Positions 7,570-52,831 of a stretch of 64,000 nt of DNA are shown here, one piece after another. Every line of letters begins with the position of its first letter. The first letter of the stretch is position 1. The notes beneath the pieces are model-generated. The model was not told the DNA's origin, ran no database searches, and was given only the letters and a program-made list of their open reading frames with translations. The translations under genes and the position numbers were made by a program. Source of the stretch: Candidatus Cloacimonadales bacterium (GTDB taxonomy: Bacteria; Cloacimonadota; Cloacimonadia; Cloacimonadales; WRIO01); assembly GCA_041654875.1 (NCBI GenBank), contig JBAZCP010000005.1, forward strand, positions 497-64,496, given 5' to 3'.

Positions 7570-8053
7570 AATTAATCCTCTTTTGTAATCTTTTTTACTT
7601 TACCATTTTTTGTCAAATGATATTTCTGAGAATATGTTTATACTAAAAAGAATATCTAAGCAAACAAAACAACTATAAATCAGTAATACCAAAGCAAATA
7701 AATATGATTTTTGAATAAATAATTCTGAATAATATTGTTCATTCTCATTATAAACTGAGAAAAGGAAATAACATTTCAATATTAATATAGTGATCAAAAA
7801 AAGTGATTAATGATTAATTAGAAATCTGGTTCTGCTTACAAATCGTAATTTTGCTCAAAACCCACAATACATGCTTATTATTAACAGTTTTAAAGAATAA
7901 ACTAAAAACTTTAACTAATATCATACTAATTAAAAAAATCTTATTATTGTATACTGCTCAAATTAATACATTACATGCATTAAATATTTTATAAACATTC
8001 TAAATTGTTACTGAATAATATTTGTAAAACTGCATCATACAAAATTAAGCAAT

Positions 8054-8139
8054 CAAAGCATCCCGTTACCATCCCGTTACCATCCCGTTACTTTGCCGTT
8101 CATTCTCCAAGATAGCAGGGGAGATCAAAGGGGATGCTT
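8054..8139. repeat. Copy 1 of a three-copy intergenic element: 3 x CATCCCGTTAC tandem 11-mers followed by a conserved palindromic core
   Basis: Exact 11-mers at 8058-8068, 8069-8079 and 8080-8090. The core at 8095-8136 aligns with 52545-52586 in reverse orientation. Flanking inverted repeat AAAGCATCCC (8054-8063) / GGGATGCTTT (8130-8139). Confidence 0.8.
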
Positions 8140-8314
8140 TAGGTATAATATCCTGTTAATTAGAGGTTTATATGAGGTTCTCTCCTAAATTAATAATCAC
8201 ATCAAAAATAATATAAAAACACAGTTCGATATTTAAAAAAAGAGTCAAATTCCTTAGCTTTTACACATATGAATATATTTATAGTTAACAATTATTTAAG
8301 TATGCTTGTAAATA

Positions 8315-8352
8315 CAAAAAAAGCCTTGCTGCATAGTTACACACAGCAAGGC
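8315..8352 (-). terminator. Rho-independent terminator downstream of the CoADR-fusion gene
   Basis: Stem GCCTTGCTG (8323-8331) / CAGCAAGGC (8344-8352). On the minus strand it is followed by TTTTTTTG. Confidence 0.75.
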
Positions 8353-8373
8353 GCAGTGTTTAGGAAGGATTGT

Positions 8374-10842
8374 TTATATAAAGAGGTTTAAGTTTGATTT
8401 TTCAGCTTCTTCGAGATAGCTTGCAACACCTCCGATAATGACGTTGTCAAGTAATTCTTCTTCTTTGACGCCCATCACATCCATCGACATTTGGCAAGCA
8501 ATCATCTGAATACCAACGTCTGCAGCAGCTTTTACCATGCTTTCAAGAGAATCTATTTTTTGTGATGCCATTCTCTTTTTCATCATAATTGAACCCATGC
8601 CCATCATATTAAGCTTTGAAAGGTTGAGTTTGCCATTATGAGCTGGCAACATCATTGAAAACATTTTGCCCATAAAGTCCTTTTTTACTTTGGGTTTTTG
8701 TACTTTTTTTATTACATTCAAGCCCCAGAAAGTAAAAAACATTGTGACTTTCTTACCTGTTGAAGCTGCACCGTGAGCAATTACAAATGAAGCTAAAGCC
8801 TTGTCCATATCATCGCTAAAGACAATAATTGTTTTATTATCACCCTGAACCTGAGAGCCAGTTTTTGCTTTTTGCTCTTCTTTCATTATTTCTGCAATAA
8901 TTTTTCCTTTTTCATGCTTAATTCCTAACAACTTATTACCCGTAATATTGGTCCAAGAACCAACATCTTTGGTAAATCCAGGATCTGAAGCTGTTATAAC
9001 TAAAACATCGCCTTCATTAATTTTGTCTATTTCATTTTTTAGTTTCATAATAGGTCCAGGACACTGCAAACCACAAGCGTCAATGTTTATTGTTTTTGTT
9101 TCTCTATCTTGTCTCATATGTGCAGGATTAGCTTGTAAAATCATATCGTCTTTAGTGATATAGTTCTTTTCAAAAATATCCTCATTACTTTGTTTTTGTG
9201 TTGAGTATTCGTAAGTTTTGTATCCCCCAGATAGGTTATAAACTTCTTCATATCCATTTTGCATTAATATTCTTGCAGCCAGATAGCCACGAAGACCGAC
9301 ACTACACAAAGTAATAATCTTTTTATCTTTAGGGATTTCATCAAGGCGGCTACGTATATCATCCAAAGGAATATTAATTGAGCCATCTATAGAACCTAAT
9401 GCAAACTCATCAGCAGTTCTTATATCCAAATAGAAATGGTTTTCTCTATCTGCTTCCAGTAGATATTTCCAGTCAACAGTTTTTAGTAAGCCTTTTATAA
9501 TGTTTTCAGCTACGAAACCAGCAATATTAACAGGGTCTTTTGCTGATGAAAATGGAGGTGCATATGCATGTTCTATTTCTTGCAAGTCGTATATGCTTCC
9601 AGAATCATTTAGAACTGTTGCTATAATATCTATTCTCTTATCAATACCCTCATATCCAATTATTTGAGCACCATACACTTTCTCACCATCGGGAGAAAAG
9701 AGAAGCTTTAATGTTAAAGGCAATGCATCAGGATAATACCCAGAATGCGATGTGCCATGAGTAATAGAAGAGATAAAGGGTATATTTTCTTGTTTTAAAG
9801 CTTTTTCTGATAAACCTGTTGAGGCAACAGTTATGTCAAACACTTTGGCAATTGCACTCGCAATTGCACCCTTATATTTCCTTTTATTACCATATATTAT
9901 ATTATCAGCAACTATGCGTCCTTGTTTATTTGCAGGTCCAGCAAGATAAGTTATAACAGGCTTATTCAAAAGAGGATGCTTAAACAAAACTGCATCGCCC
10001 AAAGCATAAATATTCTCATCGCTTGTTTGCATATAGTCATTAACAACAATACCTTTTCTCTCCCCTACTTCTAAATTAGCATCGATTGCTAATTTACTAT
10101 CGGGACTAACCCCAATAGAAAGAATCACTAAATCAGTGCGAATCTTTTTGCCACTTTTTAAGTTAACTATCAGAGTCCCATTATCTTCTGAAAAGGAAAC
10201 AACAGAGTCTTTTAGGAAAAACTCGACATTTTTGGTTTTTAAATGTTGATGTATTTGAGCAGCCATTTCATAATCCAGCATATTCATTACTTGTGCAGCC
10301 ATTTCGACAATTGTAACATTCATGCCAATATGATGTAAGTTTTCAGCCATTTCCAAGCCGATAAACCCTGCCCCGATAATTACAGCACGTTTTGCATTAT
10401 TCTCGTCTATATAGCTTTTAATTTTATCAGTATCAGGCACATTTCTTAAAGTAAATATCCCTTTCTTGTCAATACCTGGTAATGGTGGCTTAATCGGTTC
10501 AGCACCAGGTGAAAGAACTAACTTATCATATGTTTCTTCATACTCTTCACCTGTCTGTATATTTCTTACTAATACAGATTTACGATCTCGATTAATTTTA
10601 ACAACCTCAGATAAAACTCGTACATCAACGTTGATTTTGCTACGAAAAGTATCAGGTGTTTGCACAAAAAGTTTTTCCCTATCATTAATAACTCCTCCAA
10701 TATAATAGGGTAATCCGCAGTTTGCATACGAAATATACTCGCCTCTTTCGAACATGATGATTTCTGCGTGTTCGTCAATTCTTCTCAGTCTTGCAGCTGT
10801 AGTTGCACCACCAGCTACACCACCCACGATAACTATTTTCAT
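8374..10842 (-). CDS. Multidomain CoA-disulfide/persulfide reductase-like flavoprotein fused to rhodanese, TusA/SirA-like and DsrE/DrsE-like domains
   Basis: 822 aa. Contains GGVAGG FAD motif, redox Cys42 in SYANCGLPYY, a second GAGFIGLE dinucleotide motif, rhodanese loop C513 (CSVGLRG) and TusA motif CGLQCPGP (C594). The C-terminal ~150 aa are DsrE-like. Confidence 0.85.
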   Translation of the reverse strand: MKIVIVGGVAGGATTAARLRRIDEHAEIIMFERGEYISYANCGLPYYIGGVINDREKLFVQTPDTFRSKINVDVRVLSEVVKINRDRKSVLVRNIQTGEEYEETYDKLVLSPGAEPIKPPLPGIDKKGIFTLRNVPDTDKIKSYIDENNAKRAVIIGAGFIGLEMAENLHHIGMNVTIVEMAAQVMNMLDYEMAAQIHQHLKTKNVEFFLKDSVVSFSEDNGTLIVNLKSGKKIRTDLVILSIGVSPDSKLAIDANLEVGERKGIVVNDYMQTSDENIYALGDAVLFKHPLLNKPVITYLAGPANKQGRIVADNIIYGNKRKYKGAIASAIAKVFDITVASTGLSEKALKQENIPFISSITHGTSHSGYYPDALPLTLKLLFSPDGEKVYGAQIIGYEGIDKRIDIIATVLNDSGSIYDLQEIEHAYAPPFSSAKDPVNIAGFVAENIIKGLLKTVDWKYLLEADRENHFYLDIRTADEFALGSIDGSINIPLDDIRSRLDEIPKDKKIITLCSVGLRGYLAARILMQNGYEEVYNLSGGYKTYEYSTQKQSNEDIFEKNYITKDDMILQANPAHMRQDRETKTINIDACGLQCPGPIMKLKNEIDKINEGDVLVITASDPGFTKDVGSWTNITGNKLLGIKHEKGKIIAEIMKEEQKAKTGSQVQGDNKTIIVFSDDMDKALASFVIAHGAASTGKKVTMFFTFWGLNVIKKVQKPKVKKDFMGKMFSMMLPAHNGKLNLSKLNMMGMGSIMMKKRMASQKIDSLESMVKAAADVGIQMIACQMSMDVMGVKEEELLDNVIIGGVASYLEEAEKSNLNLFI

Positions 10843-14738: not shown

Positions 14739-14814
14739 TCCGGAGTGGCTCAGGGGTTAGAGCGGGTGGCTGTTAACCACTAGGTCGGGGGTTCAAATCC
14801 CTCCTCCGGAGCCA
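14739..14814 (+). tRNA. tRNA-Asn (anticodon GTT), CCA encoded
   Basis: Acceptor stem TCCGGAG/CTCCGGA, anticodon loop CTGTTAA, T-loop GGGGGTTCAAATCCCTC, 3' GCCA. Confidence 0.9.
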
Positions 14815-38190: not shown

Positions 38191-38207
38191 TGCAAGCCTT
38201 ATGCCAA
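38191..38207 (-). promoter_or_regulatory. Sigma54 (RpoN) -24/-12 promoter upstream of fliJ
   Basis: The minus strand reads TTGGCAT-aaggc-TTGCAT, with exact GG-N10-GC spacing and TGGCA/TTGC cores. It lies about 36 nt upstream of the fliJ ATG. Confidence 0.75.
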
Positions 38208-38333: not shown

Positions 38334-38343
38334 GCCAATTCGC

Positions 38344-38427
38344 ATTACCATCCCGTTACCATCCCGTTACCATCCCGTTATATTCCCCTTTATTCTCCAA
38401 GATAGCAAAGGGAATCATGGGGTAATC
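38344..38427. repeat. Copy 2 of the three-copy intergenic element (3 x CATCCCGTTAC/T plus core)
   Basis: 11-mers at 38349-38359, 38360-38370 and 38371-38381. Core ...ATTCCCCTTTATTCTCCAAGATAGCAAAGGGAATCATGGGGTAAT. Flanking ATTACC / GGTAAT inverted repeat. Confidence 0.8.
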
Positions 38428-38626
38428 AATCGACTATATCAGGCTTTTGGAATACTTTACAAAGTGATGCTAACCTAATATGTATCAATTGCTAAAGATT
38501 AGGAAAATTTGTTAGTATTTTTCGATTTAACTTATTGTTTAAACTTGATTGCAATAAACCAAAATATTTAAAAAATCATTTGACATAATTTATTAAAAAC
38601 AAGAAATGGGATATTAAGGTAAAAAT

Positions 38627-52406: not shown

Positions 52407-52435
52407 TTGACACCTTGATGCTTTATAAATATAAT
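52407..52435 (+). promoter_or_regulatory. Perfect-consensus sigma70 promoter with no adjacent ORF (fires into repeat copy 3)
   Basis: TTGACA (52407-52412), exactly 17 nt, TATAAT (52430-52435). Confidence 0.6.
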
Positions 52436-52529: not shown

Positions 52530-52620
52530 ATTACAATCCCGTTAGATTCCCCTTTGATTCCCCCTGCTATCTTTGAGAATGAATGGATATATAGTAGACA
52601 TATAAGAGGCATATAAGAGG
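52530..52620. repeat. Copy 3 of the three-copy intergenic element (core inverted relative to copies 1 and 2; 2 x CATATAAGAGG 11-mers)
   Basis: The core at 52545-52586 matches the reverse complement of 8095-8136 at 36 of 42 positions (hand count). One ATCCCGTTA unit at 52536-52544. 11-mers at 52599-52609 and 52610-52620. Confidence 0.8.
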
Positions 52621-52831
52621 TTTTAAATGGGTATTATAATAATATTATGGGTAGCAAGCTTATTAAAAATAAGTACAAGGTTTATATGATTTTCATTGTT
52701 TTGATAGAAATAAAAGATATACCTCAAGCTAAAATAGTCATTTTTGGCAGCAATTTTTTGGCATAAGTTTTGTTTTTTTGTATACCAAAAACTGCAAACT
52801 CAATTTTATTTAAAGAAAATCATAATTTTTA

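Follow-up and report, generated by a model that had tools for sequence, protein, structure and literature searches.

A dispersed repeat family of Cloacimonadota with an invariant asymmetric center and mirrored arms of helically phased 11-bp units

In the BIME-1 (RIP or RIB) elements of Escherichia coli, two inverted REP units surround a central segment that binds IHF, and the REP unit itself is recognized by its short, GTAG-headed palindrome. The parC site of plasmid R1, which is bound by ParR, consists of two blocks of five 11-bp iterons flanking a promoter core. The double-strand origin (dso) of pMV158 combines a nick-site hairpin with three 11-bp direct repeats bound by RepB, and geminivirus-type origins place an invariant nonamer in a stem-loop next to iterons. 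Together with the Correia elements of Neisseria and the pho boxes, these are the systems against which we compare a repeated element found three times, as copies C1, C2, and C3, in a 64,000-nucleotide (nt) stretch of a Candidatus Cloacimonadales genome (GenBank assembly GCA_041654875.1, contig JBAZCP010000005.1, positions 497 to 64,496). The whole of this stretch is referred to below as the window. Anaerobic digesters harbor abundant, uncultured syntrophs of the Cloacimonadota, whose gene regulation and genome dynamics are, to our knowledge, still almost unknown.

The three copies are members of a lineage-specific interspersed repeat family of the Cloacimonadota. A sequence-only reading of the window had first noticed them, and all three are confirmed in the places, and with the sequences, that it quoted; they occupy the three longest intergenic gaps of the window (Table 1). 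Each is built around a center of the form ATTCTC[C/A]AAGATAGCA, which occurs three times in the window versus about 0.12 times expected by chance, and three or more times in 0 of 100 shuffles. The same reading held the element to be noncoding and not a CRISPR array, and rightly so: the only open reading frames overlapping C1 are 20 to 36 amino acids (aa) long, and the 11-mers are contiguous, with a start-to-start spacing of 11 and no spacers. How far does the family extend? When each GTDB species was scanned for the exact pattern in one genome, true homologues came from a single representative, the sister-species metagenome-assembled genome (MAG) Cloacimonadota JPAS_maxbin.145, which carries at least 55 distinct copies, and a scan of metagenomes added at least 63 further distinct copies on contigs from anaerobic digesters and activated sludge. 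The further copies in related genomes for which the sequence-only reading had suggested a search do exist. No family member was found outside Cloacimonadota in the genomes and metagenomes searched, plasmid and phage collections gave no blastn match, and two pattern matches in IMG/VR were rejected as chance hits lacking arms. The window organism is a close relative of JPAS_maxbin.145 (the 822-aa protein encoded beside C1 is 89% identical and TrmB is 72% identical) and is itself represented in the public assemblies ERZ27247346, GCA_028695195.1, GCA_028686915.1, Ga0116251, and Ga0172382. At two orthologous loci checked in more distant Cloacimonadota, there was no element. Full-text searches that included motif strings returned no description of the repeat, and the family is undescribed in the literature searched.

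The module is about 90 nt long and has three parts, a center and two arms. In an alignment of 90 nonredundant copies (A2), the 16-nt center is invariant. To its left are two to five C-rich units (about A-T-Y-C-C-C-N5) spaced 11 bp apart, i.e., one helical turn, and to its right are two to five G-rich mirror images (GGGGAAT-GTAA-AGGGAAT). The left-hand unit reads A-TTCCC-TTTAG in JPAS-type copies and CATCCCGTTAC in the window. The power spectrum of C in the left arm and of G in the right arm peaks at 11.0 nt (1.09 versus 0.19 in shuffles) and has a 5.5-nt harmonic, and the three window copies alone give the same 11.0-nt peak. Along the aligned copies, identity is highest at the center and decays outwards. 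A profile search of 1.28 Mb of family-bearing and related loci counted 153 exact centers, ATTCTCCAAGATAGCA, and a single variant, and the center is identical across the window species, JPAS_maxbin.145, and the other contig types. The variant, AAGATAGTA, is at L294:5559-5656, which corresponds by orthology to the 3' side of the 822-aa gene in the window, and a gene of the orphan family described below lies downstream of it.

Which arm carries the perfect tandem units varies between copies. The 11-mer that makes up the left arms of C1 and C2, whose tandem arrays are the best scoring of the window, recurs in mirror image, as (GGGATGGTAAC)x3-4 on the right arm, in L211, L218, L245, and L286, and it occurs mirrored once in C3, as AATCCCGTTAG at 52535-52545 (+). 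The arms thus have two-fold symmetry around a center that is itself asymmetric, and either arm can be expanded. The repeat of C3 had been called completely different from that of C1 and C2; this does not hold, as the other arm of C3 contains the mirrored unit together with 2.5 further 11-nt units. Both of the closing pairs described earlier are real. The 10-bp inverted repeat of C1 corresponds to its outermost pair of units (AAAGCATCCCGTT / AAGGGGATGCTTT; 13 nt at 92% complementarity), and the ATTACC / GGTAAT pair at the outer ends of C2 can be seen in the sequence.

Unit number differs between strains, and it does so in whole units. At the C2 locus, 471 nt are identical across six strain contigs, except that L359 is one unit (11 nt) shorter. 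At the C1 locus, it is L379 (SRR11702766) that is one unit (11 nt) shorter, a strain that has two single-nucleotide polymorphisms elsewhere as well, and at both loci the comparison is between three units in the longer strain and two in the shorter. L250, taken here as the same locus as L157, is exactly two units (22 nt) shorter, and the flanking sequence is identical. C3 is identical in four strains.

Does the symmetry of the module reflect a molecule that folds? The core had been read as a hairpin, and the sequence symmetry is certainly present, but a notably stable fold is not. As single-stranded DNA (ssDNA), the window copies have folding z-scores of -1.58 (C1), +0.56 (C2), and +1.70 (C3), none of which beats shuffles. 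As RNA, only C1 goes beyond shuffles (z-scores of -2.4 / -3.6, versus -0.9 / -1.6 for C2 and -0.3 / +1.75 for C3), and the minimum free energy (MFE) structure is different for each of the three. When a 25-pair hairpin is laid over the 90 copies, 79.3% of cells are paired versus 78.4% after partner shuffling, which argues that the sequence of the arms is conserved and not their complementarity. Nor is there covariation in excess, with 11 pairs showing double-sided changes versus 11.9 on average after shuffling. If a palindrome had been selected as RNA, G-U pairs should make one strand fold better, so it counts against RNA that the mean RNA MFE is -27.10 kcal/mol for the plus strand and -27.08 kcal/mol for the minus strand, with one or the other favored in 45 versus 44 copies. 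Rfam at gathering thresholds recognized only tRNAs in the window and 18 family-bearing loci, and a permissive scan (E <= 10) of 7950-8400 gave nothing credible on the element, the sole overlapping match being psRNA6, whose 11.5 bits fall short of its gathering score of 60. The Rfam match and the stem covariation for which a search had been proposed were thus both absent. Taken together, these null results place the symmetry in the duplex sequence. A cruciform or ssDNA hairpin was rejected on the grounds that folding is no better than in shuffles, and a CsrA-type GGA-repeat RNA from the minus strand (ACGGGAUGG three times in C1 and C2) was rejected since, by inspection, neither C3 nor the JPAS-type copies retain it. 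G-quadruplex potential, also by inspection, is confined to copies with at least three GGGATGGTAAC units.

In JPAS-type genomes, the module is found in two settings: long-type copies lie within a miniature inverted-repeat transposable element (MITE), and short-type copies lie upstream of an orphan gene. The long-type copies share about 354 bp bounded by the terminal inverted repeats (TIRs) GAGGCTGTTGCATAA / TTATGCAACAGCCTC. Both ends are recognizable in 13 of 130 copies, and 6 of these 13 are flanked by perfect 5-bp target site duplications (TSDs), namely L032 (ATTAT), L183 (TACCT), L191 (TTAAT), L178 (ATAGA), L236 (TAACG), and L015 (TTTTT). Long-type copies are true MITEs. The module occupies positions 96-177 of the 354 and is the only part that nhmmer finds similar to the window copies (the left arm of C3 aligns to model positions 96-140); the columns of the 354-bp consensus are only about 60 to 80% conserved. 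In the window, GAGGCTGTTGCATAA has no match near C1, C2, or C3, two distant matches with three mismatches being at chance level, and no direct duplication was seen by eye to flank any copy (the AAAGC / GCTTT at C1 is inverted, not direct). The suggestion that the element is REP- or MITE-like therefore holds if taken broadly. It is a dispersed family, with its at least 55 copies in one MAG, and it sits inside a true MITE in the sister species; the window copies are likewise short, noncoding, and dispersed (three in 64 kb), but they have no TIRs, no TSDs, and no REP head. Since the TIRs are far less preserved than the center, selection appears to act on the module and not on mobility. The loci examined yielded no autonomous transposon for the MITE, only three solitary TIR-like ends (L015:7309, L191:9651, and L239:8358), and no transposase is encoded among the flanking genes examined.

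Another feature of the family is its position relative to genes. Flanking genes are oriented (left, right) as (-,+) in 23 cases, (+,+) in 9, (-,-) in 7, and (+,-) in 4. The element favors divergent promoter regions, and its own orientation in tandem regions is unbiased. C1 lies between an operon for a gldA-like ABC transporter and the 3' end of the 822-aa gene, a fusion of oxidoreductase, rhodanese, TusA, and DsrE; C2 separates the fliJ flagellar operon (-) from a trmB-like gene (+); and C3 lies between the gene for a protein with a type IX secretion system (T9SS) tail, a T9SS cargo (-), and a Reg_prop/Y_Y_Y/SpoIIE gene encoding a SpoIIE-type phosphatase (+). Genes next to other copies include those for MeaB, glutamate dehydrogenase, a glycosyltransferase, Dcm, YbaB, CinA, an NtrC-type regulator, and FlgB. 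No function is shared among the flanking genes, and the eight flanking proteins that could be named with NCBIfam are mutually unrelated.

These positions recur between species. All six genes that flank the window copies have JPAS-type orthologues about 140 to 490 nt from an element, at six separate loci. In four of the six, the same arm faces the gene (the left arm for the gldA-like, fliJ, and Reg_prop genes and the right arm for the T9SS gene), and at trmB and the 822-aa gene the facing arm, or element orientation, differs between the species. Gene order also differs between the window species and JPAS_maxbin.145, the breakpoints falling in intergenic regions that carry an element. The module may be kept beside these genes, rearrangements may occur at the repeats, or both. 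The stretch from 8374 to about 14800 of the window, from the 822-aa gene through a tRNA region, is inverted relative to L294, with one breakpoint in the C1 intergenic region.

The short-type copies bring a possible partner into view. In JPAS-type genomes, at least 10 paralogues of an orphan family of about 190 aa (MKVYLTGDHKFPKRIG...) are each encoded directly downstream of a short-type module, which lies 40 to 200 nt upstream of the gene. The layout is a promoter-like site (TTGCCA-N16/17-TATATT), then the array, then the ribosome-binding site of the orphan gene. Among 1.8 billion representatives, a profile search returned only 33 members of the family, and all those with a source name are from Cloacimonadota. 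Two members were modeled with AlphaFold2 (mean confidence, pLDDT, of 69.5 and 81.6), neither model having a Foldseek match with an E value below 2, and the better model consists of a small N-terminal sheet and a helical bundle. The orphan family is the obvious candidate partner, in that every JPAS-type paralogue seen has a module placed just upstream like an operator; the link is weaker in the window species. The orphan genes of window-species samples are embedded in short tandem repeats of 8 to 10 bp and share a second upstream motif, AATGAATGAAATTTAGTTTTGCAAAACCCC..TTTTGTCCTGCGTATTATAGTAGAGGGG (L377:2200-2310, L386:1100-1170, and L389:560-650 and 1040-1130), and those of JPAS-type genomes are flanked by GTGTGTTGT-type and GCTGACGAGCAAAGCTCGCCCC-type repeats.

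What might such a module do? We tentatively favor, with somewhat less than even confidence, a double-stranded DNA site at which protein docks or which serves an architectural role, and a protein-docking DNA site is more likely than an RNA. The module would act as duplex DNA, a sequence-specific protein would recognize the 16-bp center, and the same or a partner protein would bind cooperatively along one face of the helix over both arms. A bent or wrapped nucleoprotein complex would result and could act as an operator, an insulator, or an architectural site between neighboring promoters, and the number of 11-bp units, altered by replication slippage, might tune how much protein is loaded. The phased protein-binding array that the sequence-only reading listed among its possible roles finds its match in the sharp 11-nt period, the mirrored arms, and the unit steps of 11 and 22 nt; it is consistent with these features but unproven. 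A bolder proposal, which we consider doubtful, is that module and orphan proteins make up a previously unknown chromosomal nucleoprotein system. A family with a new fold would read the 16-mer and polymerize on the 11-bp units, producing about 60 coated, bent sites per genome that insulate or coordinate divergent promoters, are spread by MITEs, and are tuned by the gain or loss of units that keep phase.

Several observations weigh against a protein-docking site of this kind. Its neighbors have no functional theme, so the module does not define a classical regulon. Part of the conservation of position could come from there being few long intergenic regions, which weakens the statistics, or from rearrangements that break at the repeats. 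The orphan family has no relative and no DNA-binding domain in Pfam, PHROGs, PDB sequences, or Foldseek; in window-species samples, a module lies near only one of the three orphan paralogues found, about 700 nt upstream, and a more distant Cloacimonadales genome has an orphan gene with no array. Lastly, a fully invariant, asymmetric 16-mer would be unusual for a transcription factor, and the site of an enzyme, whether recombinase or nuclease, fits this feature at least as well.

That last point introduces the alternatives. The module could be the substrate of a DNA-processing enzyme, either as a recombinase core (inverted 7-bp elements around a 9- to 10-bp asymmetric spacer, with arm-type accessory repeats) or as the site of an HUH-type nuclease (a nonamer between inverted repeats plus 11-bp iterons, as at rolling-circle origins or in REP/RAYT systems). 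The anatomy matches, with ATTCTCC / GGGGAAT enclosing the invariant AAGATAGCA(A) next to 11-bp direct repeats, and there is an apparent resemblance to core-plus-arm att sites and to the hairpin and three 11-bp repeats of the pMV158 dso. The near-absolute invariance of the asymmetric center, the gene-order breakpoints in element-bearing regions, and the flipped orientation at trmB and the 822-aa gene are also compatible with such an enzyme. However, no recombinase, Rep, or RAYT gene adjoins any copy examined, plasmid and phage records show no similarity, a copy number of at least 55 per genome is much too high for an origin, gene order is collinear across C2 in six near-identical strains and across C3 in four, and the hairpin is not thermodynamically favored as ssDNA. 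We regard an enzyme site as unlikely. Slightly less so, though still doubtful, is that the repeat has no host function at all and that its copies are selfish or relic remnants of a mobile element, tolerated between promoters, with the center kept uniform by conversion or by repair of breaks at the middle of the palindrome. Long-type copies are, after all, true MITEs with a TIR (GAGGCTGTTGCATAA) and TSDs, identity decays away from the center as short conversion tracts would have it, the neighboring genes are functionally unrelated, and synteny breaks where the elements are. Yet the 16-mer is shared by several species whose flanking proteins are 64 to 89% identical, and conversion within genomes alone should have fixed species-specific variants. 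Moreover, the ends needed for transposition are kept far worse than the center, the window copies retain only the module out of the whole MITE, and the genes on both sides of all three window copies have JPAS-type orthologues that are also beside an element.

Could the module work as RNA, or as a distant activator site for particular promoters? It might be a multicopy small RNA or a 5' leader hairpin that presents AAGAUAGCA as a conserved apical loop, with a promoter just upstream of the array. The short-type copies do lie between a promoter-like site and a ribosome-binding site, a TTTACA-17-TATCAT sequence ends 13 nt before the array of C2, an invariant T-G position in the inner stem would become a U-G wobble, and C1 beats shuffles as RNA. 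Against this, the 90 copies show neither excess covariation nor strand asymmetry in folding energy, Rfam offers no family, C2 and C3 do not outperform shuffles, and the structures differ from copy to copy. Sigma-70-like hexamers are not preferentially pointed at the element (44 toward versus 41 away on the left and 20 versus 32 on the right, with no inward enrichment), the only strong promoter at C3 reads the element in the sense opposite to that of C2, and an 11-nt period has no obvious rationale in RNA. The small structured RNA of the sequence-only reading is accordingly not upheld, and we consider an RNA quite unlikely. The other idea is an array of upstream activator (enhancer) sites for an enhancer-binding protein acting on sigma-54 promoters, in which case most copies would be expected to have a GG-N10-GC promoter 80 to 200 nt downstream. 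A perfect sigma-54 promoter, TGGCATAAGGCTTGCA, is located at 38191-38206 (-) upstream of fliJ, about 190 nt from the center of C2 on the left-arm side, an arrangement kept in JPAS_maxbin.145 at L032 (TGGCACAACGGTTGCA), and C3 likewise has on its left-arm side, similarly far away and upstream of the Reg_prop/SpoIIE gene, the weaker match TGGCATAAGTTTTGTT at 52759-52774 (+). Across the family, however, an outward-facing sigma-54-like site within 700 nt accompanies just 12 of 103 copies, C1 has none, and the flanking genes are mostly housekeeping genes. This count largely refutes a sigma-54 enhancer as a general explanation, which we hold to be highly improbable. The protein-docking or architectural site on duplex DNA remains the preferred reading. 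Table 1 lists the parts of the three copies.

Table 1. Parts of the three window copies and positions of orphan-family genes (TRF, Tandem Repeats Finder)
Feature	Position	Strand	Remarks
C1, whole module (left arm, center, right arm)	8055..8140	+	nhmmer match 8048-8144, E = 2.1e-17
C1, left arm: three perfect tandem CATCCCGTTAC units	8059..8091	+	Two units in one strain; TRF 8059-8091, period 11, 3.0 copies, 100%
C1, degenerate inner unit TTTGCCGTTC, in phase with tandem units	8092..8101	+	Alignment A2
C1, invariant asymmetric center ATTCTCCAAGATAGCA	8102..8117	+	
C1, right arm: two mirrored G-rich units, GGGGAGAT-CAAA-GGGGATGCTTT	8118..8140	+	
C2, whole module	38346..38426	+	nhmmer match 38337-38434, E = 1.9e-17
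C2, left arm: CATCCCGTTAC x2, then CATCCCGTTAT	38349..38381	+	One unit fewer in one strain; TRF 38345-38380, period 11, 3.3 copies, 100%
C2, degenerate inner unit ATTCCCCTTT	38382..38391	+	
C2, invariant center ATTCTCCAAGATAGCA	38392..38407	+	
C2, right arm: two mirrored units, AAGGGAAT-CAT-GGGGTAAT	38408..38426	+	
C3, whole module, orientation opposite to C1 and C2	52530..52620	-	nhmmer match 52637-52536, E = 2.2e-18
C3, center ATTCTCAAAGATAGCA, one C-to-A difference	52565..52580	-	
C3, right arm (element orientation): GGGGGAAT-CAAA-GGGGAAT-CTAACGGGATT	52535..52564	-	TRF 52537-52563, period 11, 2.5 copies, 87%
C3, left arm (element orientation): (CCTCTTATATG)x2, then two degenerate units	52581..52620	-	TRF 52599-52620, period 11, 2.0 copies, 100%
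Orphan genes, JPAS-type	L151:2848-3414, L294:5814-6392, L099:495-1067, and others		
Orphan genes, window-species samples	L377:2501-3145, L386:1201-1800, L389:1201-1914		

Some further observations concern promoters and genes around the copies. A sigma-70 consensus matching at 12 of 12 positions, TTGACA-17-TATAAT, is found at 52407-52435 (+), with the 1106-aa Reg_prop/Y_Y_Y/SpoIIE gene about 440 nt downstream, and a transcript from it would cross C3 antisense to the element. A TTGACA box is present about 45 nt before the trmB start codon in five Cloacimonadota (window 38583-38626; L364-L367), and this suggests that promoters of the phylum are of the canonical sigma-70 type rather than the Bacteroidetes -33/-7 type. 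A Bacteroidetes-type -7 box on the minus strand of the center (TATCTTGG, or TATCTTTG in C3) was considered and dropped, since it has no -33 TTTG at the right spacing and the five trmB orthologues keep TTGACA. A sigma-28-like reading of CCAAGATA was rejected by eye, its -35 part being absent from the window copies. The 822-aa gene (8374-10842, -) fuses pyridine-nucleotide disulfide oxidoreductase, rhodanese, TusA, and DsrE-like domains, and a strong intrinsic terminator comes after it at 8323-8352. A tRNA gene at 14739-14811 (+) scores 67.7 bits with Rfam and has 62% G+C in an AT-rich genome.

Why should such a repeat matter? A near-invariant 16-mer with phased arms occurs about every few tens of kilobases, lies beside the same genes in two species, and has units that are polymorphic between strains. 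It offers a handle for finding a lineage-specific DNA-binding protein, possibly one with a new fold, and a natural marker for strain typing and for rearrangement breakpoints in metagenomes. It is also a clear case of a MITE in which the conserved part is an internal module and not the ends, which implies that the host, or another element, uses the module. Should it prove to be only a relic repeat, it would still need to be masked in searches for regulatory RNAs or CRISPR-like arrays in Cloacimonadota.

How, then, does the family compare with the systems introduced at the outset? Like BIME-1/RIP, it is dispersed, extragenic, and noncoding, has tens of copies per genome, and carries mirrored arms around an asymmetric, conserved center thought to dock a DNA-bending protein, with an architectural role in duplex DNA that is here a proposal. 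Unlike BIME-1/RIP, with which it shares neither sequence similarity nor host phylum, its arms are arrays of phased 11-bp units rather than single 35-nt REP hairpins, neither a GTAG-type REP head nor, in the center, an E. coli-type IHF consensus is visible by eye, and it occurs for the most part where promoters lie, not at gene 3' ends. REP/BIME elements associated with RAYT are imperfect palindromes of 20 to 40 nt that have a conserved tetranucleotide head and form a stable hairpin; the element described here differs in being a module of about 90 nt with a 9- to 10-nt asymmetric center and arms of 11-bp units, whose ssDNA fold does not go beyond shuffles. The resemblance to Correia elements lies in the sister species, where the module is part of a 354-bp noncoding element with TIRs and TSDs, near gene starts, and contains an internal segment resembling a protein site. 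The window copies, in contrast, lack both TIRs and TSDs, their similarity to the MITE being confined to its inner 80 nt, and in this family the internal module is conserved rather than the ends and the TSD is 5 bp.

As for systems with 11-bp iterons, parC also has 11-bp units on both sides of a unique central segment, and cooperative coating of one face, known for parC, is what is proposed here; the short-type array just upstream of a small gene would likewise allow autoregulation. The parC iterons are, as far as is known, all direct, whereas the arms described here are mirrored, and parC is a single site per plasmid adjacent to parM and parR, as opposed to at least 55 chromosomal copies with unrelated neighbors and no plasmid similarity; no genes for a ParM/ParA-type NTPase and adaptor flank C1 to C3 or the loci examined. 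With the pMV158 and geminivirus-type origins, the element shares three tandem 11-bp repeats beside an inverted repeat that encloses an invariant 9-nt segment. It differs in having no rep gene nearby, in its many chromosomal copies, in an ssDNA hairpin that is not favored, and in the lack of any plasmid, phage, or viral match in the collections searched; with housekeeping genes of the chromosome as neighbors and at least 55 copies, it does not qualify as a plasmid iteron origin or as the double-strand origin of a rolling-circle replicon. Operators of the OmpR/PhoB family (pho boxes and the Streptomyces PHO DRu) have a variable number of helically phased 11-bp units whose number could set occupancy, but these are head-to-tail only, surround no invariant asymmetric center, and define a functional regulon of a kind not seen here. 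By analogy, then, the family seems closest in logic to BIME-1/RIP, in dispersal to MITEs of the Correia type, and in its 11-bp iterons to R1 parC, the pMV158 dso, and the PHO-box DRu arrays.

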